Below the pieces are notes generated by a model. It did no database searches, was not told where the DNA came from, and saw only the letters and a program-made list of their open reading frames with translations. A stretch of DNA of 64,000 nt from Treponemataceae bacterium (GTDB taxonomy: Bacteria > Spirochaetota > Spirochaetia > Treponematales > Rectinemataceae). The DNA lies in NCBI GenBank assembly GCA_963678065.2, contig CAXXVZ010000003.1, forward strand, positions 192,001 through 256,000, read 5' to 3'. The translations under genes and the position numbers were made by a program. This document shows, piece after piece, positions 23,216-64,000 of this stretch (positions are counted from its first letter, which is position 1; every line of letters begins with the position of its first letter).

Positions 23216-24544
23216 TCAAGATGCGGGCTCGGTTTTTTTGGTGGAGACTTCGTATCCCGGAACGCCGGCGATGCCTGCCCGGGCGTCTGCGGCCCTGGCG
23301 TGGGCTTCGAGCCCCTCGATCCGCGCGAATGCGGCCGCATCGCGCGCGAGTTCCTCCGGCTCGTCCAGCGCAAGCCAGGTTCGGGCGCGAAGGAAGGCGA
23401 GGACGGAGAGTCCCGCGGCGAAGCGCGCCGCGCCTCCCGTGGGGAGGCAGTGGTTGGGCCCCGCGCCGTAGTCGCCCATGACCTCCGCGGAGGCCGCGCC
23501 GACGAAGAGAGCTCCCGCGTTCCGGATCCTTTTCCGGTACACATCGGGATCGCGGACGAGGAGTTCGAGATGTTCGGGGGCGAAGCGGTCTGCCGCCTCG
23601 CAGGCGATGTCGATAAAGTCTCCGGCAGAATCAGCGACGGACAGAACCCAGCCATTGCCGAGCGCGGTTGTCGCCGTGCCGCGGTTGGGTTCGGGCAGCG
23701 TCGCGAGCCTGCGGTCCAGCGCTTTCTCGACGGCGCGGGCGAAGCCTTCGTCCGGGGCGACGAGGGCCGGAATCGCGGCAGGATCGTGCTCGGCCTGGGC
23801 GAGGAGGTCGGCGGCCACGATTTCGGGCCCCGCCGAAGCGTCGGCGATCACGAGGAGCTCGGAGGGCCCGGCCGGCGCCTCGGTCCCGACGACGCCGAAG
23901 AGAAGACGCTTCGCTGCCGCGACGTAGCGGCCGCCGGGGCCTACGATGACGTCGCAGGGCGGCGCGCCAACCCCGTAGGCGAGGGCGGCTATGGCCTGTG
24001 CTCCGCCCGCCGCGAGAAAGCCCTCCGCGCCCGCGATGAAGGCCGCCGCGAGTGTGACGCGCGAGGGGCGGGGTCCGGCGCACCAGACTGTGGCCACGCC
24101 TGCGGCCTTGGCCGCGCAGACGGTCATGAGCGCGCTCGAGGGCAGGGGATAGCGCCCGCCGGGAACGTAGCAGCCGGCGCGCGAAACGGGCACGAAGTCG
24201 TGACCGGCGCGGCCGCCCGGCACCGCCATGTCCAGATCGCAAAGGCTCGCCCGCTGGGCGGCCGCGAAGCCCGCTATGCGGTTTTTCGCGCGCTCGAGGA
24301 GGCCCCTCGTCTCCGTGTCCGTGGCCTCGAAGGCCGCCCGGAGCTCATCCCGGGAGATGGCGAAAGGAGCGCCGGGCGCAAGCTCGCCCGTCTTTTCGGC
24401 CCACTCGCGCAAGCCCGCCTCACCGCGCTTCCGGACCGCCTCTATCGCTCTCAGGGCGACGGCCTCGGCCTCGGCGTCGAAACCTTTGCGGCCCGATTCG
24501 GGTATATCCCCGAGCCCGATGCGCCTCAGTGTATGCTGTTCCAT
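23216..24544 (-). CDS. hisD: Histidinol dehydrogenase
   Basis: [62 protein letters not shown]. Confidence 0.97.
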
Positions 24545-25842
24545 GAAAGGTCCTCGCCCGAAGTCTTGTAGGCCGGCTTGGCCGCTCCGCCCCTGCGTTT
24601 AACCTTGAGGGCGCGGCGGTCGAGCTCCGCCTCGATGTCGGCCAGTCCCGCCCCCTCGACTTCGGCCTTCACGAGAGCGAAGTAGATGACATCTGCGGCT
24701 TCGGCCGCCGCCTCGACAGGACCTTTCGCCCTTGCGAGTTCGTCGGCCTCTTCCCGGAGCTTGGACCCGAGAAGCGCCTCATCCTCGAAGAGCTTGCGCG
24801 TGTAGGAACCCGCTGGCGCGTCTTTGCGTCGCCCGGAGATCGTGCGGGTCAGCCTCTCGATCCCCTTTCCGTCGTCGAAACATGTCCAGCTGCCCGTATG
24901 GCAGAAGCCCTTCCCCTCCTGGCGGACCGTGAAGCGCAGAGTGTCCCTGTCGCAGTCGGTCTCGACCCGGACGAGGCGCTGGGTGTCGCCCGAGGATTCA
25001 CCCTTGGTCCACAGCCCGCGCCTTCGGGACTGGTAGACGCCGAGGCCGGTCTCGAAAGCCTTTTCTAGACTCTCGCGGCTCGACCAGGTCATGCCGAGAG
25101 CGCGGCCGCCCTCGTCACAGACCAGGGTGGGCCAGAGTCCGTCCGCCCGGTCGGAGACCAGCGGGGCCGCGAAGGCATCCGCGAGGCTCAGCTTGCCGAG
25201 GGCTATGGCCGTCCCTGCCTGGACATCGGCGCCGAGTCTGTCGAGCTCGGCGATTTCCACGGGCAAGGTGGCGCCGCCTGCGAAGGTGACCCGCCTGCCG
25301 CAGGCCGAGCCGACGAGGACCCTCGCCCGGTCGAGGTCGAGCCCCTCCATCGCTCCTTCGCGCTCGATGAAGGTGACGAGGAAGCCCGAAACGTACGGAG
25401 CGAGCTCCTCCATCCTCTTCGAAAGGTCGAAGTCGACGGATTTCGTCCAACCCTCGACCATGACCCTGCCATCCCTCATGTCGAGCGCGGCGATCACCCG
25501 CTCCTTCGGCAGTGCGGAGAGAAATTCCGGGTTGGCCTGGGTCCCGACCATCACCGAGCGGGCGCCTGAGTCGAGCAGTTCCATCGCGAGTTCGACGGTC
25601 CTTATACCGCCGCCCACCCGGGCGGGGTAGCGGCGGATGAGCTTCTTCACCAGTTCTTTGTTGTCGCCGCTTCCGAGGGCAGCGTCCAGGTCGACGATGG
25701 CGATCTCTCCCGCGCGCGAAAGGCGGGCCGCCACGACCTCGGGATCTCCTACGTCGAGCACGGGGAAACGCCCGCCTTCGGGCTTCCCGCCGCGGAGCTG
25801 CACCGCCCTTCCGTTCATAATATCCACACTCGGCACTATCAT
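24526..25842 (-). CDS. Fusion protein: HisA-like TIM barrel + phosphoribosyl-AMP cyclohydrolase (HisI) + phosphoribosyl-ATP pyrophosphatase (HisE)
   Basis: N-terminus PSVDIMNGRAVQL, IVDLD, VGGGIR; middle LWTKGESSG...DCDRD...FCHTG...CF; C-terminus SYTRKL...KLREEADE...EAAD. Confidence 0.92.
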   Translation of the reverse strand: MIVPSVDIMNGRAVQLRGGKPEGGRFPVLDVGDPEVVAARLSRAGEIAIVDLDAALGSGDNKELVKKLIRRYPARVGGGIRTVELAMELLDSGARSVMVGTQANPEFLSALPKERVIAALDMRDGRVMVEGWTKSVDFDLSKRMEELAPYVSGFLVTFIEREGAMEGLDLDRARVLVGSACGRRVTFAGGATLPVEIAELDRLGADVQAGTAIALGKLSLADAFAAPLVSDRADGLWPTLVCDEGGRALGMTWSSRESLEKAFETGLGVYQSRRRGLWTKGESSGDTQRLVRVETDCDRDTLRFTVRQEGKGFCHTGSWTCFDDGKGIERLTRTISGRRKDAPAGSYTRKLFEDEALLGSKLREEADELARAKGPVEAAAEAADVIYFALVKAEVEGAGLADIEAELDRRALKVKRRGGAAKPAYKTSGEDLSWNSIH

Positions 25843-26651
25843 ATCCGAACCTCCACATTCTTCGACGCGAGAAATCGTTTGAGTTCGCCGACCGAAAGTT
25901 CTCCGCGGTGGAAGACTCCGGCCGCGAGGAGGGCTCCCGCCCCGGCCTCTATGCCTTCAAGAAACTGCCCGGGTCTCGCGGCTCCCCCGGAGGCGATGAC
26001 GGAGATCCCGCATGAGCGGCTCACGAGGCGAAGAAGCTCGGCGTCGTAGCCGATGCCCGTCCCGTCGCGGTCTATCGCGGTCAGGAGGATCTCCCCGGCC
26101 CCGAGCCTTGCGCCTTGCGCGCACCAGAGCACGGGATCGATGCCCGTGGGCTTCCCGCCCGAGTGGACGAAGACTTCCCAGAGCCGGGACGCCGCCGTCT
26201 CAGTCCCCAGAATCGACGCGACTTTCCCGGCAACTCCAGCCGTCTTCCGGCCGGCATCCACCGCGAGCACTACGCATTGTACACCGAATCGCTCGGCGAG
26301 GCGCGATATCAACGCGGGATCGGCCACAGCCGCGCTGTTCACCGATACCCGGTCCGCCCCGGCGGAGAGGAGTCTGCCCGCGTCCTCGACAGAGCGGATG
26401 CCGCCTCCGACCACGACGGGAATGGAGACTGCCTTTCTGATCCTCTCCACGGTCGCGGTGGCTGTCCTCCTCTCCTCAAGAGTCGCGCTGATGTCGAGCA
26501 TGGCGATCTCGTCGGCGCCCTCCGCCTCGTAGCGCGCGGACAGTTCGGCGGGGTCGCCAGAATCGACGAGATTGCCGAACCTGACTCCCTTCACGACGCG
26601 CCCACCCCGCACGTCGAGGCAGGGAATTATCCTGACAGCGGTTCCGCTCAT
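25839..26651 (-). CDS. hisF: Imidazole glycerol phosphate synthase, cyclase subunit
   Basis: RIIPCLDV..GRVVKGV.F, LDISA, GAGEILLTAIDRDG, IASGGA. Confidence 0.97.
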   Translation of the reverse strand: MSGTAVRIIPCLDVRGGRVVKGVRFGNLVDSGDPAELSARYEAEGADEIAMLDISATLEERRTATATVERIRKAVSIPVVVGGGIRSVEDAGRLLSAGADRVSVNSAAVADPALISRLAERFGVQCVVLAVDAGRKTAGVAGKVASILGTETAASRLWEVFVHSGGKPTGIDPVLWCAQGARLGAGEILLTAIDRDGTGIGYDAELLRLVSRSCGISVIASGGAARPGQFLEGIEAGAGALLAAGVFHRGELSVGELKRFLASKNVEVRI

Positions 26652-27469
26652 ACTTCGCCTCCCGTGGCGCCGGGCAGCCCGCTGCCGGCCACAACCCTCG
26701 CACGCGTATCCTCGCCTTCGTCCGCTCCGACGCCGAGCCATCGTCTGTACAGGCTCTGTCCCCATGGTCCGGAGAGTTCGGGGTGGAACTGGCACAGAAG
26801 GAGAGAAGGGCTCATGCCTCGTCCCGGCTCTGAGTATTCAAGGGAGGCCACGAAGGGTTCCCCGTATACGGACCGCGAAACCCGGAATCCGGCGGGACCC
26901 TCCGCCACACAGTAACTGTTCGCGTAATAGGCCCAGCCATCGGCGACGAGCCCTCGCTCTCCGGGCCGGTCGGGGTAGCTGCCCGCCGCGACGCGGTTCC
27001 ATCCGAGCTGCGGTAAAGGAAGATTGCAGACAAAGCGCCTGACAGTCGCCTGCACGATGCCCATCCCCTCGACCCCTCCTGACTCCTCGCTCGAGGCGCA
27101 GAAGAGCTGCATCCCGAGACAGATGCCCATGGATGGACGTCCTGCGACGAATCGTTCCCTGAATGCGTCCGCTATTCCGCTCGCCACAAGCTTCTCCATC
27201 GCGGGTCCGAAAGCCCCTACGCCCGGAAGGATTGCGTAGTCGGCCTTCGCGATGTCCGCAGCGTCTTCGGATATCTGCGCATCGCTCCCCGTTCCGGCCA
27301 ATACCCGCCCGAGGGCGGCCATGACTGAGGCGAGGTTGGCCGCTCCGGTGGAAGCGACGAGAATTTTTCTGCCTCCGCGTCGCGCTCCGTCGTCGTCGTC
27401 GACCTTCGCCGCGGTGCCGGATCTCTCCGGCGCAGAGTCACCCTTTTGCACGAGGTTTTCCGGCATCAT
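26648..27469 (-). CDS. hisH: Imidazole glycerol phosphate synthase, glutaminase subunit
   Basis: [31 protein letters not shown]. Confidence 0.93.
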
Positions 27470-28209
27470 GATCCTTCTCCCCGGAGCTTCTCCCACTCTT
27501 CCCCGTCGAGCTCGACAAGTCGCACCCCGCCCTTCGTGCTCGCAAACCCCCCACTCTCGTCCGCCACTTTCCCCGCCCCGCGGCTTTCCGCCGGCTCGAG
27601 CGCCATCCTGAGGGCGAGAGCCAGGGCCTTGAATGCCGCCTCAGCCCTGTGGTGGTCGTTGTTCCCCCTGATCAGGTCGACGTGGAGATTCATCCTGGCA
27701 GAATACGCGAAGCTTTCGAAGACATGGACGATGTTCTCGCAGGCGAGTTCCCCGACAGCGGGGCGCGCGAGTCCCAGCTCCGCCACGCAGTACGGCCTCC
27801 CCGAAAGGTCCACGACGGCCCTCGCGAGGGATTCGTCGAGGGGGGCGTAGGCGTATCCGAATCGCCTCGTCCTGCCCGACTTCTGCAGAATGCGGAACAG
27901 GGCTTCGCCGAGAAGGATGGCGCAATCCTCCGCGCTGTGGTGGTCGTCCACGCAAAGATCGCCCCGGCACCGAAGGTCCACTGACCATCCTGCGTGCGTC
28001 GCGAGGGATGTCAGCATGTGGTCGAGAAAGCCTATACCGGTATCCACATTGATGCGCCTGTTCCCGGGGCCGTCTCCGCCCACTTCTTTTCTCTCCGCCC
28101 CGACTACGCCGTCCAGATCGAGCCAGAGGGAGATACTCGTCTCCGCGCTCGTCCGCGAGAGCGCGATCGCGCGTCCCTTTGCCGAAAAATCCGACATTCC
28201 GGTACTCAT
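27466..28209 (-). CDS. hisB: Imidazoleglycerol-phosphate dehydratase (monofunctional)
   Basis: [37 protein letters not shown]; no phosphatase domain. Confidence 0.96.
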
Positions 28210-29237
28210 GCGAGCCTCCCTATATCGTCTAGAACCGAAAGTAGCCTCTGAAACTCTTCCTCACTGCCGGGACAGGTGATCCGGACGAGCCCCTCGAAGC
28301 CGGGCTTGCCCGGCCAGTGCCTGATGAGAACCTCCCTGTCGGCCAGAGCCGCCGCGAAGCCCGGCGCGTCCGCCACCCTCGCGCAGATGAAGTTCGCCTC
28401 GCTCGGGCAGGGCTCGGCGCCCGTGGCTTCCAGAACCGAGAACAGCCGCGCGCGCTCGGAGCGCACCTGGGCGAGAAAAGCTTCGTCCATCGCCGGGGCC
28501 GAGTCCAGCGACATGCATGCGGCCGCGATCGCCGGCGCGGAGAGCGAGTAGGGCGGCCCCGCCCTGCGCAGCGCCGCGACGAGATCCGATGACTCCCCGC
28601 ATGCCGCGGCCCATCCGACACGGAAGCCCGCGAGTCCGTAGGACTTGGAGAAACTTCCGGTCACCACCACGTTCCGCGTCGCGAGCGCCCGTTTCCGGAG
28701 CCTCTTGTCCGAGCCGAAGTCGTCGTAGGTCACGTCGACGACGAGGATCGTCCCGGATTGCAGGCAGGCCGAGGCGAGGACTTCGAACTCCTCCTCCGTC
28801 AGGATTCCACCGCCGGGATTATCGGGACTCGCCACGAGGAACATCGCCGGCCTGTTTTCCCGTATCATCGCCGAGGCGGCGCCGAGGGGGAAGGGCGCCT
28901 CGGGCCTCCGCTCCACCGAAATGCACTCCGCTCCCGAGCGCTCCGCCGCATCCGCGTACTCGCCGAAGGAGGGCGCCGTCGTCGCGATCGTCGATCCTGG
29001 ACCCGCGAGCATGCGGACGGCGCGGTCGATGGCATCGTCGGCTCCCGCCGTCGCGATGACGAGGGAGGGATCGAGCCCGAGAAGGGCGCCGAGCTTTTTC
29101 TCGAGGGGGCGCGCGTCCGGATAGCGGCGAACCCTCTCCGGGGCGAGGAGCCCGGCCAGCTGGTCGGAGGAGAGGATGCATCGACCTTCGTTCGCGTCGA
29201 GCCGCAGAGGCTCTGGCGCCGGTATGGTGGCTGTCAT
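28206..29237 (-). CDS. hisC: Histidinol-phosphate aminotransferase
   Basis: [43 protein letters not shown]. Confidence 0.92.
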
Positions 29238-29283
29238 GCCCGTTTCCTTGCCGTTATCGGCTGCATCCGCGATCGCTCCGCCC

Positions 29284-30219
29284 TCATGGGACGAGCTGGC
29301 TGAGCTCTGTGACGACGATGTCCGTGCCGCCACGCTTCTTGATCTCCGGAATGAGGTGTGCGAGCATCGCGCGCGGGGCCGCGATCCTGACAGCGAAAGC
29401 CTGTCCGCCGTCAAGGGGCGAAATCGTCGGCGAGCGCAGGCAGGGCAGGATGTCCGTCACCGCCTGGAGCCGCTCGATCCCCACGTTGAGTTCGACCATG
29501 ACCCTCGTGCGCGCCTCGATCACCGACGTGAGGAGGAGGACGATGGATTCCGCGGCTTCCCTCTTGGCGGGGTCGGCCATCGCGGCTTTGGATGCGTAGA
29601 GCCTCGTCGAGCTCTTCATGATCTCGTCCAGGATGACGAGGCCGTTCGCCTTCAGCGTCGAACCGGTCGCGCAGTTGTCGACGATGATGTCGGCGTCTTC
29701 GGGCGGGAAGACCTCCGTCGCGCCGTAGGAGCGGAGGAAGACAGCGCCCGGCGTGTTGCGCGTCATCCAGTACTTCGTGATTCCCTGATATTCCGAGGCG
29801 ACGACGAGGGAATTGCGGGCATTCTTGATGCCATCGGGGCGCGCATCGGCCTTGAGCCTCCCGTTTTCAGTCAGGTAGGCCGGGGCCGCCGCGACGATCT
29901 TCACAGGATCGAGCCCCGTGTCCATGAGCTCGACGAGGTCGGCCTCGAGCTCGCGCACCCAGTCTGCGCCTGCGAAGCCCACGTCGCGGCTTCCCGTCGC
30001 GAGCATCTCGACGATGTTCTGCGGCTTGAGGAACTTGGCTTCGAAGGCGATGTTGAGGGCCCCTTCGATCACCTGCTCCGGATCCGACCCCACCTGTGGC
30101 CTGTAGCCGCGGTCATCGGCCCGGACCGGAAGCCCCGCATCGCCCATGAGACGAAGAACTTCGGCCTGCATCCTTCCCTTCGGCAATCCGAGCCTCACCA
30201 CTGTCTGACCTGCACTCAT
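29284..30219 (-). CDS. hisG: ATP phosphoribosyltransferase (long form)
   Basis: LGLPKGR, GATEVFPPEDADIIVD...TGSTLKANGL, C-terminal regulatory domain (PTISPL); SD AAGGAG. Confidence 0.97.
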   Translation of the reverse strand: MSAGQTVVRLGLPKGRMQAEVLRLMGDAGLPVRADDRGYRPQVGSDPEQVIEGALNIAFEAKFLKPQNIVEMLATGSRDVGFAGADWVRELEADLVELMDTGLDPVKIVAAAPAYLTENGRLKADARPDGIKNARNSLVVASEYQGITKYWMTRNTPGAVFLRSYGATEVFPPEDADIIVDNCATGSTLKANGLVILDEIMKSSTRLYASKAAMADPAKREAAESIVLLLTSVIEARTRVMVELNVGIERLQAVTDILPCLRSPTISPLDGGQAFAVRIAAPRAMLAHLIPEIKKRGGTDIVVTELSQLVP

Positions 30220-30236: not shown

Positions 30237-30266
30237 AAAAAAGCCGGCTCCTCGGGGCCGGCTTTT
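30237..30266 (-). terminator. his attenuator terminator
   Basis: On the minus strand: AAAAGCCGGC-CCCGAGGA-GCCGGCTTTTTT, just upstream of the hisG SD. Confidence 0.9.
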
Positions 30267-30386: not shown

Positions 30387-30455
30387 TCACGGTCCCTGAA
30401 AATGACCGTGATGCCGATGGTTGAGGATGGCGACAGCGACGACTTCGTAGTTCAT
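30387..30455 (-). CDS. hisL: his operon leader peptide MNYEVVAVAILNHRHHGHFQGP (22 aa)
   Basis: Four His codons within six positions, followed by alternative hairpins and a terminator before hisG. Confidence 0.88.
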   Translation of the reverse strand: MNYEVVAVAILNHRHHGHFQGP

Positions 30456-30624: not shown

Positions 30625-31524
30625 ATGAACACGGAAACGGATCGGTTGCCGATGCCCCAGCCGAAGCAGAAACTTTCGCAGGAGAACCACTCACGGGCGG
30701 TGCTGGGCGAAAGCCTTGTCTATCCCGTCCTCTCGCGCCGCTCAGGCGGACTATCTGTCGGCATAAATCTCTTTCCTGACCGCAAGACCTGCTCCTTCGA
30801 CTGCCCCTACTGCGAGGTTTTCCCCTTCGAGTCTCCCGAGACCCGCGATCCGGCCGCTCTCCTTCAGAAGCTGGAGCGCGATGTCGACGATTTTCTTGGC
30901 CGCATATATCCGGACTCTTTCGCGCCGGAGCCCCTGCGCGACCTCTGCATCTCCGGGAACGGCGAACCGACTCTCTCGCCCTGCCTGGAGCCCTGCCTCG
31001 CCCTCCTCGAATCGGCCCGGAAGCGCCATCCGGAGATCCTCGCGGCGACGCCGACCGTCATCATCACCAATTCGACGGGATTCCTGAACTCCGCCACCCG
31101 GGAGCTTCTGTCCCGCTTCGCTTCGCTCGGCAGGCTCGATATCTGGGCCAAGCTCGACGCGGGCAGCCCCGGGGTATTCCGTCTCATGTCAGGATCGGGC
31201 TTCCGCCTCGACGAGGTCCTCGCTGGCCTTCTCGCTTTTTCTCAGAAGACGCCCGTCATCATCCAGAGCATGCTCTGCTCCGTAGGGGACTTCAGTCCGG
31301 GCAGGGCTGAAATCGAGGCGCGCGCCGCCCTCCTCGGAGAATTCGCCGGCCGCGGCGCCCTGATCCGCGAAGTCCATCTCTACACACTCTCTCGCGAGGC
31401 CTGCCACCCGGGAGTCCGTCCCGTCTGTGACGCGGAACTCCTCGAGGCCGCGCGCATCCTGTCGCGCGCCCTGCCTTCCGGCGTGCCGGTCAAAACCTTC
31501 GGGCCGCACGGACTACTCGTTTGA
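30625..31524 (+). CDS. Radical SAM protein
   Basis: YPVLSRRSGGLSVGINL, CSFDCPYC (CxxxCxxC), SGNGEPT. Confidence 0.9.
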   Translation: MNTETDRLPMPQPKQKLSQENHSRAVLGESLVYPVLSRRSGGLSVGINLFPDRKTCSFDCPYCEVFPFESPETRDPAALLQKLERDVDDFLGRIYPDSFAPEPLRDLCISGNGEPTLSPCLEPCLALLESARKRHPEILAATPTVIITNSTGFLNSATRELLSRFASLGRLDIWAKLDAGSPGVFRLMSGSGFRLDEVLAGLLAFSQKTPVIIQSMLCSVGDFSPGRAEIEARAALLGEFAGRGALIREVHLYTLSREACHPGVRPVCDAELLEAARILSRALPSGVPVKTFGPHGLLV

Positions 31525-32348
31525 TCGATCTGCACACCCATTCCACGGCCTCGGACGGCTGCCTTTCGCCCGCCGCCCTCATCGGGCTCGCCGCTGACTC
31601 GGGGCTCAGGCTGATAGCCCTCACCGACCACGACAGTCTCGAGGGCTTGCCGGAGGCCGAAGCTGCGGCCAGGGCGAAAGGCATCGGTTTCATACGGGGC
31701 ATCGAGATGGAAGTCGCCTGGGAACCCGGCGAATTTCACATGCTCGGACTCGACCTCGCCGACCTGGGCGGGGAACTCGCCGAAGCGACGCTGACCATGG
31801 CCCGTTCGCGCGGAAACCGCAATCGTCTCATCATGGACAAGATCAGGGAAGCGGGCATCCCCGCGACGATGGAGGAGCTCAGAACCCATGCGGGGGCGGG
31901 CAGCATAGGCCGTCCCCATTTCGCGGACATGCTCGTCAAGCGGAACGCGGCGCGGAACCGTCAGGACGCCTTCGACAAGTACCTTGCGAAGGGCAGACCC
32001 TTCTACCTCGCGAAGGAGTGTTTTCCCCTCACCGAAGTCATCCGCCTCATCCACGCGGCGGGCGGGCTCGCCATCGCCGCCCATCCCCTCTCTCTCTTCG
32101 TTTCCTGGGGACGCCTGCCTGGTATTCTGGACGAGTGGAAGGAGCTCGGAGTCGACGGCATCGAGGCCTACCATCCGACCGCAAAGCTCGGCCAATGCAG
32201 GCGCCTGGACGCCCTCGGCAGGGCCCGGGGATTCCGGATAACGGCGGGCTCGGACTACCACGGCAACCGCAGGCCCGAGCGCCGCCTCGGCCACACCGCG
32301 GGGAAACTGCCGATAGCGGACAGCTATCTCGACGAAATAGCCCGCTAG
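31521..32348 (+). CDS. PHP-domain phosphoesterase (TrpH/YciV-like)
   Basis: IDLHTHSTASDG, ALTDHD, GRPHFA, AHP, GSDYHG. Confidence 0.93.
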   Translation: MIDLHTHSTASDGCLSPAALIGLAADSGLRLIALTDHDSLEGLPEAEAAARAKGIGFIRGIEMEVAWEPGEFHMLGLDLADLGGELAEATLTMARSRGNRNRLIMDKIREAGIPATMEELRTHAGAGSIGRPHFADMLVKRNAARNRQDAFDKYLAKGRPFYLAKECFPLTEVIRLIHAAGGLAIAAHPLSLFVSWGRLPGILDEWKELGVDGIEAYHPTAKLGQCRRLDALGRARGFRITAGSDYHGNRRPERRLGHTAGKLPIADSYLDEIAR

Positions 32349-55981: not shown

Positions 55982-56887
55982 TCAAGACGCCATTTTCTCA
56001 GAATAGACTTGATGAGCATCGACGATGCTGCGTAACCCAGCACCATAGACAGAGTCGGGTGTTTTCCCGAAAAGAGATTGGTGCGGTCTGAAAGAATTGT
56101 ACTTCACGATGTAGTCGTTGATTCTCGATCTGCATTCGTTCACATCGGCATACTCCATGAGGTAAATTTCCTCATACTTCAGGCTACGCCAGAACCTCTC
56201 GATCATGATGTTGTCCAAAGCCCGCTTTTTACCGTCAGTGCTTATCCTGATCCCGGCATCCGAAAGTTTCTGAGTGAAAGCGGGACTGGTGAATTGCGAT
56301 CCTTGATCGGAGTTGAAAATTGCCGGTGCCCCATACCGGTTCAGTGCATGATCAAGTGCCGACAGACAGAATAGTTTGTCCATCGTGATTGAGAGTTCCC
56401 AGGACAGGATCTTTCGCGAATACCAGTCCATAATCGCGACAAGATATGCAAATCCATGCTTGAGACGAATATAGGTGATATCGGTACACCACACCTGATT
56501 TGCATGCACTATTTCCATTCCAACCAATAAATACGGATGGATTCCCGCTTCAGGATTCGGTCGGGACGTAGTTCCCTTCGGATAGAGTGCCTGGATACCC
56601 ATGAGGCGCATAAGCCGTTGTATTCGTTTGCGATTCACGTCATGACCTTCCTCGCGTAGTCTGTCCCGCATCTTCCGGGATCCCCATGCGGGATTGTCGG
56701 TATACAGTTCGTCTATTCGACGCATGTACATCAGATTTTCTTCCGTTTCTCCTTGTGCACCATAGTAATATGTCGATCGATGAAGCTCGACCAAGGCGCA
56801 TTGCTCAGTGATACTCAACTCAGTGTGCGCCATGATCAGGGCTCTTCGTTCGGTAATCGGGAGATCCTGAGACTTTTTTTTAACCAA
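55982..56887 (-). CDS. IS3 transposase OrfB (DDE integrase core)
   Basis: WCTDITY, NSDQGSQF, DNIMIERFWRSLKYE. Confidence 0.93.
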   Translation of the reverse strand: MVKKKSQDLPITERRALIMAHTELSITEQCALVELHRSTYYYGAQGETEENLMYMRRIDELYTDNPAWGSRKMRDRLREEGHDVNRKRIQRLMRLMGIQALYPKGTTSRPNPEAGIHPYLLVGMEIVHANQVWCTDITYIRLKHGFAYLVAIMDWYSRKILSWELSITMDKLFCLSALDHALNRYGAPAIFNSDQGSQFTSPAFTQKLSDAGIRISTDGKKRALDNIMIERFWRSLKYEEIYLMEYADVNECRSRINDYIVKYNSFRPHQSLFGKTPDSVYGAGLRSIVDAHQVYSEKMAS

Positions 56888-57144
56888 TCAATCTGTACTT
56901 TCTGGTGCCCAACCGTTTTGTAGAGCTCTTCTCGTTCTTCTTCTATCCGTTTGGCATCACGTTCTGCTACACTGGCGAACACGTCGGTCCCATGCTCGAG
57001 CAATTGCCGTTTCCATTCGCTTATCTGCTGGGGATGCACTCCATACTCCGTTGCGAGTTCACTGATCTGCTTCTGCCCTTTTATCGCTTCAACTGCGATC
57101 GTGAACGTGAGTTGGGCAGTTCTCCGGATGCGATGTTCTCCCAT
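56836..57144 (-). CDS. IS3 transposase OrfA (HTH)
   Basis: ELATEYGVHPQQISEWKRQ; ends ...IDWLKKS at the frameshift window. Confidence 0.88.
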   Translation of the reverse strand: MGEHRIRRTAQLTFTIAVEAIKGQKQISELATEYGVHPQQISEWKRQLLEHGTDVFASVAERDAKRIEEEREELYKTVGHQKVQIDWLKKSLRISRLPNEEP

Positions 57145-57255
57145 GATTCCCCCCGTTCATCATTGAACAGCAACTTTCCTCTGCTGTCCAGTTTTCGGGG
57201 TCCACCATAGACCGCCACCTTTGGTGGCGGTCTATGACTCCTATTTCCCCTCATA

Positions 57256-58478
57256 CTAGTACTCCGTCACATTTAAATTTATAATATAACCTCAAGGTGT
57301 GGTGTACTCTTTCTAAGGGGTATAGCCATGCCAGTCATCAAATATCGAGTGGTTCTGACCGATGCAGAGAGAAAGAAACTCATCACCATAACTTCAAAGG
57401 GTTCATCTACCGCCAAAATGATCATGCATGCACAAGTCCTACTGTCCGCTGATGAAAGCGGCGGCAGGAAGCTCAGTGAAAAGGAAATAGCCAGTCGCCT
57501 TTCGGTCAACTTCCAAACGGTCCATAGCATCCGTAAAACCTATGCTCTCTCAGGCTTGGATGCTGCTCTTGGAAGGAAGAAACGCTCGACTCCTCCAATC
57601 ACTCCCAAGATTACCGGGGATGTTGAAGCCAAAATCATTGCCCTGAGTTGCAGTTCGCCGCCAGAAGGCAGAAGTCGGTGGACGTTACGACTTTTGGCCG
57701 ATAGAGCTCATCGAGCTTCAGATCGTCGAGAGCATTTCCCATGAAACCATTCATAGAACGTTAAAAAAAACGAATTGAAGCCGCATCTGCGTACATGCTG
57801 GGTCATCCCGCCCCAGCAGAACGCAGCATTCGTCGCCTGTATGGAGGATGTACTGGAAGTATATCAACAGCCCTACAATCCTGAGTTTCCCCTCATCTGC
57901 ATGGACGAGAAGCCCTACCAACTTCTTGACGAGACGCGCGAGTCAATTCCCATGAAGAAGGGAACCAGCGCACGACAGGACGGCGAATATATCCGGAATG
58001 GGACCTGCTGCATCTTTTTGTTCACGGAACCCCTGACTGGCTGGCGACATACCAATCCACGGGAACACAGAACCAAAGTCGAGTGGGCGAATCAAATCCG
58101 ACATCTGCTTGAAGTTGAATACTCCGAATGCAAGAAAGTGCGGCTGGTCATGGACAATCTGAATACTCATTCGGTGTCATCGCTCTATGAGGCGTTTTCT
58201 CCTAAGATCGCGCGGAACTTGGCCAGACGGCTTGAGATTCACTTCACTTCCAAGCATGGAAGTTGGCTGAATAGTGCAGAAATTGAATTAAGCGCGGTGA
58301 GCAAACGGTGCTTGGATCGAAGGATCGATACCATTGGTACGTTGGCTGCGGAACTTCTGGCTTGGGAAACACATCGCAATACTTTGCAGAAGGGCGTCGA
58401 CTGGCAGTTTACTACTCAGGATGCCCGGATCAAGCTCAAGAGACTTTATCCACAGATTAAGATGTGACAAAGTACTAG
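57256..58478 (+). mobile_element. IS630 family insertion sequence; transposase probably inactivated
   Basis: IRs CTAGTACTCCGTCACAT / ATGTGACAAAGTACTAG. OrfA 57328-57744 (RWTLRLLAD), OrfB 57775-58467 (MDEK, MDNLNTH, SWLN.AEIE). A8C slippery site 57763-57771, plus an extra +1 shift near 57706. Confidence 0.9.
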
Positions 58479-58699
58479 AGTGCGAATAGGTAACTATCCT
58501 CATGGTCTCATTGGCTGCAAATTTAGCAAAACTATAAGATGGAACATACTTTTCTTCTTGAATATTTCGTTCTCGAGGTCATGACCTGTTCAGCAGTTAC
58601 TAAATCTTTCATTAGTATGACAACGTGAGTTACAATATTACCCAATGAATACAAGGTAAATTCATAAGTCATGTTGTGCTAAATACGAAAGAATTAGTA

Positions 58700-58962
58700 A
58701 TATCCTGGATGTTCAGCCCAATTCTGCTGCATTGTTCTACCGCAACATACGTCAAATTATAGCTTTTCACCTTGCCCAAGAAGCAGCTGAAGTATTCAAT
58801 GGTGAAGTAGAAATTGATGAGAGCTACTTCGACGGTATTCGTAAAGTCAAATGGGGTCGAGGTGCAGCGGGAAAAGTTGTCGTATTCGGCATGCTAAAAC
58901 GGCATGGTAAGGTTTTGACGGTCGTTGTGGATAATACCAAGACAAAGACCTTAATGAATTAA
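58700..58962 (+). pseudogene. IS1595 family transposase remnant
   Basis: GEVEIDESYF.G.RK...GRGAAGK.VVFG motif; stops prematurely. Confidence 0.8.
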
Positions 58963-59014
58963 ATTATGGAACACCTAAAGAGCAATTAAAATACCATTAT
59001 CAATAGGATTATAT

Positions 59015-60301
59015 GTGAGAATAATAGATTCATTTATACGTAAACAAAAAGGTTTGTCACCTGATAGCAAGTCTGTACTCACCTTAGTTGGAGGTACAAC
59101 TATTGCTCAAGTATTAAATTTCCTTTTTGCTCCTGTAACCACTAGATTATTTACCCCAGAGGTTTTTGGAGATTTATCTGTCTTCACATCTATTACAGGT
59201 ATTGTCGGAATAATCGTTTGCTTGAGGTATGAACTTGCAATTATCCTACCTCAAGATGATGATGAAGGATTTTCTCTTTTAAAACTTTCTTTTATTTTTG
59301 CTGCGATAGTATCTATAGCGACTGGTTTCATTTTTCTTTTTTGGGGTAAAGCTATCTATACAGCATTCGGAGCAAAAAACTTAACAATATATTGGTATTA
59401 TGTACCGATAATCCTATTCCTGATAGGAGTTATTCAAGCATCGAATTACTGGTTGACGCGTACACGGCAATTTATAATACTTTCATGGAACAAAGTTATC
59501 CCTGTACTTGTTATCAATACAGTATCTTTAGGCCTTGGTTTTGCTGGTTATAGAGATGTTGGAGCCCGGATTTTTGCGATTTTGATTAGTAATATTGCTA
59601 ATATTGTGGTTATTGCTAAAGCAATTATTCCAAATTTTAAATATAATAACCATTCTACAAAATATCCCCGTAAAGAATTAATAAAAAGTTATAAAAATTT
59701 TTTAGTTTATGACATTTGGGGAGCGCTTCTTAATAATCTTTCGTGGATGATAATTCCTATACTTATGAATACTTATTATGGGAGAAATGCTGCTGGGCAG
59801 TATTCGATCAGTTTGCGAATAATCCAAATACCGGCTAGTATAATTGGAGTGTCAATATCACAAGTATTTTTAAAAACAGCAAATGAAGAGAAGTATAATA
59901 AAAAGTTATATTTTTACTGTATAAAAATGTCTAAAAAATTATGTATATACACAGCACCAATTGCGATAATATTACTTATTTTAAGTAAGCCTCTTTTTCT
60001 TTTTCTTTTTGGTGAAAATTGGGGCGTTGCTGGAAGGTATACACAAATTTTGGTACCTTGGTCATTACTTTGGTTTATTGCGAGTCCTCTTTCTAGTGTA
60101 TATACAATTTGTCAGAAACAAAATTTATTTTTATTCATTTCGATATTAAATCTTTTAACAAGGCTTTTATCTCTTTATGTTGGCAAAATGCTTGGTAATG
60201 ATATATTAGGAATAATTTTGTTTTCTGCATCTGGATTCATTGTTTATGGTATTAGTCTATTAATAATTTTTAATATAGCAAAAAGGAATGATAATACCTG
60301 A
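59015..60301 (+). CDS. wzx: Wzx-type oligosaccharide flippase; 3' end interrupted by IS1380
   Basis: TLVGGTTIAQ, TRLFTPEVFG, LRYELAI.LP, about 12 TM helices; very AT-rich. The stop codon lies inside the IS1380 left end. Confidence 0.88.
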   Translation: MRIIDSFIRKQKGLSPDSKSVLTLVGGTTIAQVLNFLFAPVTTRLFTPEVFGDLSVFTSITGIVGIIVCLRYELAIILPQDDDEGFSLLKLSFIFAAIVSIATGFIFLFWGKAIYTAFGAKNLTIYWYYVPIILFLIGVIQASNYWLTRTRQFIILSWNKVIPVLVINTVSLGLGFAGYRDVGARIFAILISNIANIVVIAKAIIPNFKYNNHSTKYPRKELIKSYKNFLVYDIWGALLNNLSWMIIPILMNTYYGRNAAGQYSISLRIIQIPASIIGVSISQVFLKTANEEKYNKKLYFYCIKMSKKLCIYTAPIAIILLILSKPLFLFLFGENWGVAGRYTQILVPWSLLWFIASPLSSVYTICQKQNLFLFISILNLLTRLLSLYVGKMLGNDILGIILFSASGFIVYGISLLIIFNIAKRNDNT

Positions 60302-61769
60302 ATCCGTACAGAAAAAAGGGAAACCAAAGATCAATTCCATGGTGTAGAATGAATTGGACAAACAACCATTCACACCCGGAGGATGATCTTGAGCTTCCTC
60401 ATCCAGTCTACCAAGGAACACATCGAAAGCGAGCTCGAGTATGTTCCAGTTCGCGAGACACTCCGCATCTATCTCGGCCGCATGGCAAAAAAGACAGCCG
60501 GTCTGATTACCTCGCTGTTCAACTGCAACGTGGCGCTGCTCAGGCTGGCAGACATCACGCCGCTCGATGTCGAGGGGCGGCGGTACATCCCGGTGGATGT
60601 CGATGCCTCGACGCTCGACAACGGAAAGTCACACAAGGAAGGCGTGGAACGGACCTACCTGGAGACGGATGGTTTCGCCCTATCTTCAGCTACATCGGCA
60701 CCGAGGGCTACCTGCTCGGCTGCGAACTCAGACCCGGTACCAGCACAGCCAGAAGGATACGCCCGAGTTTCTCGCGCGGAATCTCGAGATGATCAAGGAA
60801 CTGGGATTGCCGCATCCCATTCTGTTCCGGCTCGACAGCGGGAATGACGCCATCGACACCATCAGGAAGCTCGTCACACCGGGGGGGCTTCTTCTTGATC
60901 AAGCGGAATCTTCGCAGGGAATCTCTGGAACAGTGGCGCGAGATCGCCGAGACGCTCGGGGTGGCGCATCATCTGCGACCCGGGAAGAATGTCTACACGG
61001 GGACGATCACGAAGGTGCACCCCAAGACTGATCCCGAGATGCCGGACTTCGACGTTGCCTTCGAAGTCACCGTCCAGACTTCGGATCATCAGGGCAACGA
61101 GTTTCTCGTGCCGGAGGTAGAAGTCGAGATCTGGTGGACGAACCTCTTCGAGCCACCTGAGGTGATCATCGGGCTATATCACGACCACGGGACGAGCGAG
61201 CAGTTCCACAGCGAGCTCAAGAGCGACATGGGTGTGGAGCGGCTGCCGTCGGGTTCAATGAAGGTCAATGCGCTGATTCTCATGATCTCGATGCTCGCCT
61301 TCAACACGCTGCGGTTCATCGGGCAGCGGTCGCTCTCAAAGCCCGACCTTCTGCCGTCAAAGCCGGACGTTGCGTGCAAGCGGCTGAGGAAAGTGATCGC
61401 GGACCTTATCATGGTTGGCTGCAAGCTTGTCGCACATGGACGACGGCTGGCCCTTCGGATTTGGGAGTACAATCCCTGGCTGCCAGTCTTCAATGAGCTG
61501 TATGCCGAGTTCCTAAGGCTGTAGAACGCCGCGCCTTGTGCCAGCCCGCCGCCTCTCCTCGCGATGAAGTTGGCGAAGCCTACCCGGCGGATATATCAGG
61601 ATCCTCTTTGGAGGATTCTGTGGCTTCGGTGCCCTGCAACCATCTCGCTTCACGATTGAGAAACAACGAATCGGCCATCACATGTTGGAATTCCGGTGAC
61701 ATAGACGATCAGAGGGTCTAGTTTCAGCTCCAGAGAAGCTCTGTTCAGGTCATTTTATACGGATTAAGG
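60297..61769 (+). mobile_element. IS1380 family insertion sequence with a frameshifted transposase
   Basis: IRs CCTGAATCCGTA / TACGGATTAAGG with TAATA on both flanks. Transposase is split over three frames (VDVDASTLDN..S.KEGV..TY; FRLDSGND; YHDHGTSEQFHSELKSD). Confidence 0.9.
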
Positions 61770-61797
61770 TTAATATTTTGCTACTAGGGGTTAACGA

Positions 61798-63096
61798 TTG
61801 CATAAAGAGAAATATACCGGGAAAATTCTGCACCGATTATTAATGATAAACGGATATAGCTATCCGGAAAAGATAGCCTTTTCTATTATGGAATTGAGTC
61901 TTTATAAGACGTTTGCCCAATATCATATATTGACTGATGTTATTACTCCGACGCCTGTTCGTGGAATTTCTGACGATGAATACGAAAAATATTATTATGT
62001 GACCGAAGAAGATATGTATGATGGTTGGGTTAAAATTCACAGGTATAAACTTGGTAAAGAAAAAAACGCTATCATTAAACGCGCTTTTAGATATGTCAAA
62101 GGTGCTGCCAAATCTTATTTCAGTGGCATTTCGTATAAAGATTCTGAATTGATTTTTTCAACAAGCACACCCCCTATGCAGGGATTTCTTTGTGGCTTGG
62201 TTAAAAATAAACTTAGGATACCATTCGTATATTATCTATGTGATGTATTCCCAGATTCGCTAGTTAATTGTGGGTTAACGCGTAAGGGATCATTGGTGTG
62301 GAAAATCGGTAGAGTAATTGAGAATTATACATATAAAAAAGCCAATAAAATAATTGTTGTAAGCCATGATTTCAAGCAGAATCTTCTTGCTAAAGGGGTT
62401 CCGGAAGATAAAATTGAGATTGTATATAATTGGATAGATCCAGACTCAGTTATACCCATACCGAGAAAAGATAACAAACTGTTCGATGATTATGCACTTG
62501 ATCGTGACGGGTTCTATATCGTTTATGCTGGTAATTTGGGAACAGCTCAGGGTGTCCGTATACTTGTCGATGCTGCAGCAATACTGAGAGAAGAAAACAT
62601 AAATTTTGTTATATTTGGCAATGGAACAGAAGAGGAAGATATACGACGCAGAATAAAAAGTCTACACTTGACAAACATTCATGTATTCCCAATGCAACCT
62701 CTTTCTAGGATAAGTGAAGTGTACAGTCTGGGGAATGTTTCCCTTGTTTCGTGCAAGCCGGGCTTCGGAAGCGTTGGTATGCCCTCGAAAACGTGGAGTA
62801 TTATGTCTGCAGCGGTGCCGGTGTTGTTGTGTTTCGATGATGGCACAGAATTAAAAGACATTGTTGTGGGTAATAACTGCGGAGTATTTTCAAAGGCGGG
62901 TGACAATTGGGCTCTGGCTGAGATGATTATGAGCCTTTATAAATCGGATTCGGTGTATTTGAGTAACCTTGGTCATAATGGGCGGAATTTTGTTACTAAT
63001 AATATGTCAACCAAGATATGTACCAATAAAATAATAAACATATTTTTAACTGCTTTAGAAAAGGCTATACCGAATGATGAAGACTATAATCATTGA
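61798..63096 (+). CDS. Glycosyltransferase family 4 (WbuB-like); start TTG 61798 or ATG 61843
   Basis: YPE, STPP, DVFPDS, YAGNLG.AQG, MPSK motifs. Confidence 0.9.
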   Translation: MHKEKYTGKILHRLLMINGYSYPEKIAFSIMELSLYKTFAQYHILTDVITPTPVRGISDDEYEKYYYVTEEDMYDGWVKIHRYKLGKEKNAIIKRAFRYVKGAAKSYFSGISYKDSELIFSTSTPPMQGFLCGLVKNKLRIPFVYYLCDVFPDSLVNCGLTRKGSLVWKIGRVIENYTYKKANKIIVVSHDFKQNLLAKGVPEDKIEIVYNWIDPDSVIPIPRKDNKLFDDYALDRDGFYIVYAGNLGTAQGVRILVDAAAILREENINFVIFGNGTEEEDIRRRIKSLHLTNIHVFPMQPLSRISEVYSLGNVSLVSCKPGFGSVGMPSKTWSIMSAAVPVLLCFDDGTELKDIVVGNNCGVFSKAGDNWALAEMIMSLYKSDSVYLSNLGHNGRNFVTNNMSTKICTNKIINIFLTALEKAIPNDEDYNH

Positions 63097-64000
63097 TGTC
63101 GCATATACTTCTGGTGGCGCTGAAACCATCCTGCGTCAGTATTACAGAGACAGCGTTATGAAGACCAATGATGAGTGGATTTTCATAACCAGTAATATAG
63201 AATTAGAAGAAGCTGAAAACATTCAACTTATTCGATATCCCAAAGCAGCCACTTCGATATTATATCGATTTCTTTTCGATTATATTATAGCACCTTATCT
63301 TGTTAGAAAGTATAAGCCTGATCGAATACTTTCTCTTCAAAACGTGGATGTACCATGGGTTACTGTACCTCAAACGATTTATCTGCATCAATCAATTCCT
63401 TTTACTACAGTTAAAATGAAATTTTCTATAGATAAAAGGCTGTGGTTTTATCAAAATATATATAAATACAGAATTCGTCAGATGTTATATCGAGCAGATA
63501 AAGTAATCGTACAAACGAACTGGATGAAAGACGGCTGTATACAACTGGCAAAAATCAGTCCGGAAAAAATTGAAGTAATTATTCCACGTCTGATATTTGA
63601 CAGCGGTGTTGTATACAAAGGCGATAACCATCCTAAGTTTTTTTATCCAGCAAATGGGCATTATCATAAAAACCATCGAATTATCCTTGAGGCAGCAATA
63701 CTATTAAAGAAGAATGGCATAAATGGCTATGACATTACCTTTACTCTAGCTGGAGATGAAAACGAAAATGTTAGAATGCTGTTTGATAAAACGGAAAAAG
63801 AGGGTTTGCCAATATACTTCGTTGGGACTATTCCATATTCAACTATGATGGAGTATTACAAAGAGTGTATTTTACTGTTTCCGTCCTATGTCGAATCATA
63901 TGGCCTGCCGCTACTTGAAGCAAAAACAGCCGGATGTCCAATTATTGCAGCAGATACACCATTTGCGCATGAAATATTAGACGGGTATCCTATCAGTACA
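63074..64000 (+). CDS. Glycosyltransferase family 4, 3'-truncated by the window edge (not in the ORF track)
   Basis: MMKTIIIDVAYTSGGAETIL...FFYPA...HKNH...LFPSYVESYGLPLLEA...PIIAAD; open to the window end. Confidence 0.88.
   Translation, partial: MMKTIIIDVAYTSGGAETILRQYYRDSVMKTNDEWIFITSNIELEEAENIQLIRYPKAATSILYRFLFDYIIAPYLVRKYKPDRILSLQNVDVPWVTVPQTIYLHQSIPFTTVKMKFSIDKRLWFYQNIYKYRIRQMLYRADKVIVQTNWMKDGCIQLAKISPEKIEVIIPRLIFDSGVVYKGDNHPKFFYPANGHYHKNHRIILEAAILLKKNGINGYDITFTLAGDENENVRMLFDKTEKEGLPIYFVGTIPYSTMMEYYKECILLFPSYVESYGLPLLEAKTAGCPIIAADTPFAHEILDGYPIST

Follow-up and report, generated by a model that had tools for sequence, protein, structure and literature searches.

Fungal His4 has an N-terminal region followed by HisI, HisE and HisD in a single chain, and the locus described here raises the question of whether a bacterial operon preserves the state that preceded this fusion. 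The window, a stretch of 64,000 nucleotides from a Treponemataceae bacterium, contains a gene that joins a HisA-type barrel to HisI and HisE and overlaps hisD. The initial annotation proposed that this pair is related to the ancestor of fungal HIS4 and that the His4 N-terminus may be a decayed HisA barrel. The features that bear on this proposal, in window coordinates and in the direction of transcription, are listed below.

30387..30455, minus strand: leader peptide of 22 aa with four His in six codons, likely the his attenuator
30237..30266, minus strand: GC hairpin ending in a U tail immediately ahead of the ribosome site of hisG, found by eye and by folding and absent from the scan list
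29284..30219, minus strand: hisG, long form
28206..29414, minus strand: hisC, start uncertain
27466..28209, minus strand: hisB, by Pfam
26648..27496, minus strand: hisH, start uncertain
25839..26651, minus strand: hisF, overlapping the fusion gene by 4 nt; the ORF is listed to 26795 but probably starts at 26651
24526..25842, minus strand: hisA-hisI-hisE trifunctional gene (protein P0001, 438 aa), from ORF and Pfam domains; model pLDDT 92.7
25168..25842, minus strand: HisA-type (beta/alpha)8 barrel, residues 1-225, with Asp7, GGGIR, GT, Asp121, Trp132, Glu162 and AGG
24868..25167, minus strand: HisI (PR-AMP cyclohydrolase) domain, residues 226-325, with Cys297, Cys314, His315 and Cys321
24571..24867, minus strand: HisE (PR-ATP pyrophosphatase) domain, residues 326-424; TIGR03188 57.4 bits, cut-off 42.7
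24551..24555, minus strand: GAGGA Shine-Dalgarno-like site of hisD, within the upstream fusion gene, 6 nt before the hisD ATG
23216..24544, minus strand: hisD, 442 aa, of a family-specific type and not the fungal type

The operon reads hisG-C-B-H-F-[AIE]-D. All three domains of P0001 are recovered by Pfam, as His_biosynth (residues 1-212, E 1e-34, 120 bits), PRA-CH (251-322, E 4e-25, 87.9 bits against a cut-off of 27) and PRA-PH (330-410, E 1e-15, 58.2 bits against 21.3). The 438-residue A-I-E reading frame first described for this DNA is thereby confirmed, as are the 19-nt overlap with hisD in a different frame (24526-24544) and the position of the hisD GAGGA site, and every window motif that the initial annotation quoted is found in the translation. 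The HisI metal motifs DCD.D and CH..C are present (D296-C297-D298, C314-H315, C321), and the acidic metal ligands of HisE (E364, E365, E368, E381, D384) are invariant over 89 rows. The three domains occur together, at lengths of 408-465 aa, in all of the best 120 of 7,047 matches, so the fusion is not a frameshift artefact. It ends at the stop at 24526 and hisD is a separate gene, so there is no N-I-E-D single chain at this locus.

A His-rich leader and hairpins before hisG are expected for a working histidine operon. The segment 30237-30455 (minus strand) folds into stacked hairpins (fold z -5.0) with a U-tailed stem ahead of hisG, and the hairpin at 30237..30266 is likely the attenuator terminator. 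Of 64 related loci, spread over many phyla, 54 also have a His-rich leader, and the leader region has no Rfam match; judged from its sequence, the operon is likely attenuated by this leader, a candidate attenuator. The his operon has no histidinol-phosphatase gene, and the nearby protein at 31521-32348 (plus strand), which its motifs suggest is of the PHP type, is for that reason a candidate for the missing enzyme. Farther along the window, GC content falls from about 62% to 37-50% over 56001-64000, which suggests foreign DNA.

The A-I-E gene is a common housekeeping fusion. The nearest named homologs of P0001 are from Spirochaetota. Among 301 genomes of the window's phylum, a close copy (64%) turned up in just one genome besides the source. 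A member of the family, with both bacterial A-I-E groups counted, was matched in 92 of 301 genomes from the phylum to which the Polyangia locus L041 belongs. A survey that kept 80 loci out of 125 confirmed stretches found the exact G-C-B-H-F-[AIE]-D order in 35 of the 80, most others being cut or minor variants; by their titles these loci come from Spirochaetota, Planctomycetota, Myxococcota, Acidobacteriota, Sumerlaeota, Acidimicrobiia, Alphaproteobacteria and Bdellovibrionota. The second, more distant bacterial group (L230-L237, L245-L258) combines the same Glu-type barrel with a more ordinary HisIE; it is found in spirochaetes and in the phylum of L041, and its member L253 continues into HisD.

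Longer chains are also frequent. HisD lies in the same chain in 118 of the 120 long matches listed, with named bacterial A-I-E-D proteins from Ca. Palauibacter, Phycisphaerales and Deltaproteobacteria, and a clean fused A-I-E-D frame free of N bases was found in 5 of the 80 loci. Four H-F-A-I-E-D(-G) chains appear among the long matches listed, two of them from eukaryote transcript sets. Other multi-fusions are P0174 (A-I-E-G), P0238 (H-F-A-I-E-B) and P0208 (A-I-E-D-G). An apparent bacterial H-F-A-I-E-D mega-fusion at L013 was discarded as an artefact, its stop codons containing N bases.

How close is this family to fungal His4? Fungal sequences were gathered by a motif scan of metagenomes (116 stretches) and then by a profile search, which yielded 120 His4 proteins. 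The set was seeded by a motif common to the A-I-E family, sequences identifiable as S. cerevisiae, chytrid or Mucoromycota were absent from it, and the identity counts use the 36 of the 120 that are named as ascomycete or basidiomycete. Window HisIE is 45-57% identical to these 36 proteins (median 51%, 202 bits), against medians of 31-35% and 75-96 bits for eight ordinary HisIE. Domains were split by a motif rule, which failed for P0266, P0311, P0315, P0318, P0337 and P0360, and these were excluded. In the resulting IE tree (77 rows, 12 of them outgroup, L093 and L125 left out, bootstrap not settled), fungi, mega-fusions and the A-I-E family share one branch of 0.64 with support of 100/100. 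Within it, the fungi group with seven mega-fusion rows (96/91) and the window falls among the bacteria, and the closest sampled kin of fungal HisIE are accordingly eukaryote-type mega-fusions, not the spirochaete lineage. The five rows labelled as protist were assigned by architecture alone; P0151, whose protist label was a guess, falls with the bacteria. A topology that unites the fungi with ordinary HisIE is significantly worse than the careful tree (p=0.004) but not than a poorer quick tree (p=0.095). The view that the HisI and HisE parts are fungal-type rather than ordinary bacterial thus holds, on identity and on phylogeny, and the yeast His4 motifs quoted in support of it are seen in other fungal His4. 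The count of RR.G.AK in fungi (120/120) is circular and was set aside. Fungal His4 was found neither in the PDB nor among 50 of 629 plasmid matches.

The N-terminal region of fungal His4 was modelled with AlphaFold2 using residues 1-197 of L110, which is overall 77-78% identical to named Dothideomycete His4, with 143 fungal-type rows and no templates. The single model (pLDDT 92.6) has eight strands alternating with helices. Its top Foldseek match is the HisA-type 4wd0 (E 3e-5), and HisA and HisF hold most of the top ranks. In a wide structure search HisA 4gj1 led (Z 15.9, rmsd 3.0, 179 aligned), GlpP was level with it (Z 15.0), and small TIM barrels all lay at Z 12-16. In profile-profile alignment, hhalign gave 85-87% over 43-44 columns (alpha3-beta4-alpha4-beta5) between the fungal N-domain and the family barrel; ordinary HisA (85%) and HisF (77%) profiles matched the same columns, and reversed profiles gave less than 1%. 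The family-barrel HMM scored at least 5 bits on 94 of 230 fungal N-domains, all in one register, and on 0 of 230 reversed; at 15 bits it retained 18 of 230, and HisF and ordinary HisA profiles retained none. Pfam yielded a single His_biosynth match among 31 fungal N-domains, at noise level (E 0.037). A blind search of the source genome ranked the P0001 barrel first of 22,554 ORFs (E 0.02), and a deeper profile ranked it second behind an unrelated ORF. The fungal profile, searched against 1.84 billion proteins, gave no intact barrel among the 150 of 184 matches listed. Taken by itself, the sequence signal for a fungal barrel is weak, though it points in one direction.

Position and context add to the structural prediction. 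Across the barrel-HisI junction, from the final helix of the barrel into HisI, the window protein and basidiomycete His4 have near-identical sequence. We consider it improbable that the fungal N-domain descends from some TIM barrel other than HisA, such as HisF or GlpP, and was attached to the family HisIE later: the Z range common to small TIM barrels and the match of HisF and ordinary HisA profiles to the same 44 columns would fit such an origin, but the fungal domain has the same position, a similar length and continuous sequence across the junction, its sister rows in the IE tree hold an intact HisA barrel at that place, and the best score belongs to the family HMM. The proposal that the His4 N-terminus is a decayed HisA barrel is supported at the level of prediction, with position and junction favouring HisA over other TIM barrels. 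GGG occurs in 0 of 230 fungal N-domains and the strand-1 Asp in only 104 of 230, so the domain is predicted to be catalytically dead. In yeast the isomerase is a protein of its own, His6 (2agk).

Decay of this kind is also seen in a bacterial setting. A 397-aa N-I-E gene at L151:1629-2819 (minus strand), on a bacterial-looking contig, carries a half-decayed barrel that Pfam does not detect but that matches both the family barrel (98%) and the fungal N-domain (93%). Its Atlas model fits a basidiomycete His4 cluster with TM 0.85 over 368 residues, and its own Atlas cluster is 52% Bacteria, Myxococcota being commonest. In profile match and predicted structure, this protein bridges the family barrel and the fungal N-domain. 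It was rejected as a fungal ancestor: the IE tree places it among myxobacterial rows (89/90), and its barrel more likely decayed independently. Two further sets of clusters match the L151 Atlas model, oomycete N-I-E clusters of 429 aa (TM 0.83) and a Promethearchaeota I-E cluster of 300 aa (TM 0.75 by row), and these may carry related N-domains.

The fourth part of His4 tells against a direct ancestor. Fungal HisD shares 34.5% identity with the window protein and 46% with HisD of E. coli. In a quick tree (50 rows, 5 of them outgroup), fungal HisD joins E. coli, Deinococcus and Pseudoalteromonas (99), and window HisD groups with the A-I-E family and the mega-fusions (100); a forced clade of fungal and family HisD is rejected (AU p=5e-5). 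Because the HisD of fungi belongs with that of E. coli and not with family HisD, His4 is a mosaic, and because the HisD link fails, the window locus is a cousin of the front half of His4, not its pre-fusion ancestor. The relation to His4 first proposed for this DNA thus stands for the N-region, HisI and HisE and falls for HisD. The simplest route, in which loss of one stop codon would have made all four parts of His4 from an A-I-E gene and its overlapping hisD, has the identical N-I-E-D order in its favour, as well as the existence of bacterial A-I-E-D fusions and the outcome of two IE-tree tests, neither of which rejected fungi together with the window trio (p=0.2 and 0.6); the HisD evidence largely refutes it, and we regard it as very unlikely. 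The first three parts of His4 may nevertheless descend from the operon. A second HisD-like gene lies outside the window (G000 C3:1602810-1603955); it is 37% identical to window HisD, sits on a long branch and presumably resembles the sulfopropanediol dehydrogenase HpsN.

Is the window barrel itself an active HisA? The source genome (5.27 Mb, 99.94% complete) was searched by tblastn and Pfam, and neither the operon nor the rest of the genome has a separate hisA: only the P0001 barrel and hisF pass the Pfam cut-off. Nor was a His6-type gene found in the genome, the His6-type model matching only the P0001 barrel. The absence of a separate hisA from the operon, noted at the outset, thus extends to the genome. 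In the genomes of 50 relatives (50 of the 80 loci; MAGs, which may be incomplete), 39 have only two TIGR00007 matches, read as family barrel and hisF; the other 11 have extra HisA/HisF-like genes, seven of them with a stronger stand-alone HisA-like gene.

The motifs of the barrel are strongly kept. Asp7 is present in 233 of 237 family barrels, the remaining four being gaps, and GGG.R, G100, D121, W132, T157, E162-G163 and AGG are each kept in 235-237 of 237 (GGG.R in 236-237, AGG in 235-237). In HisA the Asp on strand 1, here Asp7, is catalytic and the GGG.R and AGG motifs serve phosphate binding; Glu162 occupies the position of the second acid, Asp176 of Salmonella HisA. Glu162 is found in 237 of 237 family barrels, and Asp stands at the same position in 7 of 7 ordinary HisA. 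In plant HISN3 (9fcf), DVEG aligns with EREG of P0001, giving an identical Glu, so the residue has precedent in an annotated isomerase. The doubt about activity raised early on by the unusual TFIEREG motif is largely removed by this invariant Glu and its plant counterpart; activity itself stays a prediction. The P0001 model matches PriA/HisA at an rmsd of about 2 Å, with a Foldseek TM by target of 0.84 for the barrel. That the barrel is an inactive scaffold, with ProFAR isomerised by some other enzyme, seems to us a poor prospect. Such an idea could draw on Glu in place of Asp176, on the Ala that replaces His of the LHLVDLD motif, on scores below all NCBIfam HisA cut-offs (TIGR00007 122 against 229 bits, TIGR02129 34 against 229) and on the decay seen in L151, but the catalytic and phosphate motifs are invariant over 237 homologs, the genome offers no other candidate and plant HISN3 has the same Glu. 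On its kept motifs, the P0001 barrel is probably active as a ProFAR isomerase.

We consider it likely that P0001 carries out steps 2-4 of the pathway and that its family was the source of the His4 N-region (as a predicted dead HisA barrel), HisI and HisE, with HisD from a different lineage. The HisE domain would take pyrophosphate off PR-ATP, the HisI domain would open the ring to give ProFAR, and the barrel would isomerise ProFAR through Asp7 and Glu162. The G-C-B-H-F-[AIE]-D operon would have spread through bacteria, and an early eukaryote would have acquired its H-F-A-I-E-D part, which would live on intact within the fused proteins of the Acanthamoeba type. With a separate isomerase, His6, in fungi, the barrel may have become redundant and degenerated until only a structural role was left, and the end of His4 would have been supplied by a HisD of the E. 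coli/plant type. The reverse transfer, from eukaryotes to bacteria with the bacterial family derived from a His4-like gene, could account for the patchy distribution across many phyla and the weakly resolved root inside the family (80/64, 85/87), but we hold it hardly credible, as a second bacterial A-IE group branches outside the family and, in bacteria, the barrel is still intact, the operon still split and the attenuator still present. For transfer into eukaryotes, we lean slightly towards a fuller account in which the operon was captured as a block, amoebal mega-enzymes keep H-F-A-I-E-D, His4, perhaps together with oomycete N-I-E proteins of 429 aa, is what is left of it elsewhere, with a HisA pseudoenzyme barrel and, in His4, a swapped HisD, and the predicted Glu-type HisA links bacterial HisA to His6 and HISN3.

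The A-I-E class has already been mentioned in print; predictions and trees lend good support to the His4 barrel and to a mosaic origin. Trifunctional PRA-PH/PRA-CH/ProFAR isomerase proteins were reported in Spirochaetia and some Gammaproteobacteria, and, in the text available, they and fungal HIS4 were said to seem to share a common ancestor near Myxococcales (Witek et al. 2021, PMC8102479). P0001 belongs to this class, with three activities in a single chain and the same phylum. The remark in the available text of that paper rests on a similarity network; a tree or test, the His4 N-domain, the Glu, bacterial A-I-E-D chains and the HisD mismatch do not figure there. In an earlier account (Fani et al. 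2007, PMC1963479), going by its available text, the His4 N-region had no homology and HIS4-like proteins were not found in prokaryotes; its coordinates make the S. cerevisiae N-region only about 133 aa long. Both negative statements, as they stand in that text, are overturned by the predicted N-region barrel and the bacterial A-I-E-D chains. A concrete identity is thus offered for a region whose origin had been a puzzle since then, and His4 appears as a mosaic of two lineages, not a simple fungal fusion of hisIE and hisD. The available part of Del Duca 2023 (PMC10138114) lists seven fused his genes, hisA not among them, and the parts seen of PMC8305728 and PMC5919458 have nothing further on the A-I-E/His4 question. 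Our literature search returned no report of a His4 barrel or of bacterial A-I-E-D; subscription papers and InterPro or AlphaFold pages may already show the barrel.

Set beside known systems, the P0001 barrel shares its fold and most active-site motifs with HisA/PriA (4wd0, 3zs4, 5a5w), HISN3 (9fcf) and yeast His6 (2agk), but is about 30% identical to them or less, is fused and scores under the curated cut-offs. The value of the A-I-E gene is evolutionary and also lies in annotation, as databases label such proteins only HisE or HisD. Four-domain HIS4-like proteins also exist in bacteria. Fungal His4 and the window have in common the order N/A-I-E-D, the HisIE clade and the predicted barrel fold; they differ in HisD, which in the window stands alone and is of another type, and in the barrel, which in the window retains its motifs. 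The heptafunctional His protein of Acanthamoeba, whose origin was left open in the text available (Rice et al. 2018, PMC6029752), has an H-F-A-I-E-D order equal to the last part of the window operon; unlike the operon, it is one chain of 1,682 aa with a terminal HisG. Database proteins of the same build, on which this likeness rests in place of the Acanthamoeba sequence itself, are 46-64% identical to the window in each of the A, I and E domains and carry the window type of HisD, which suggests a bacterial source for the heptafunctional enzyme.
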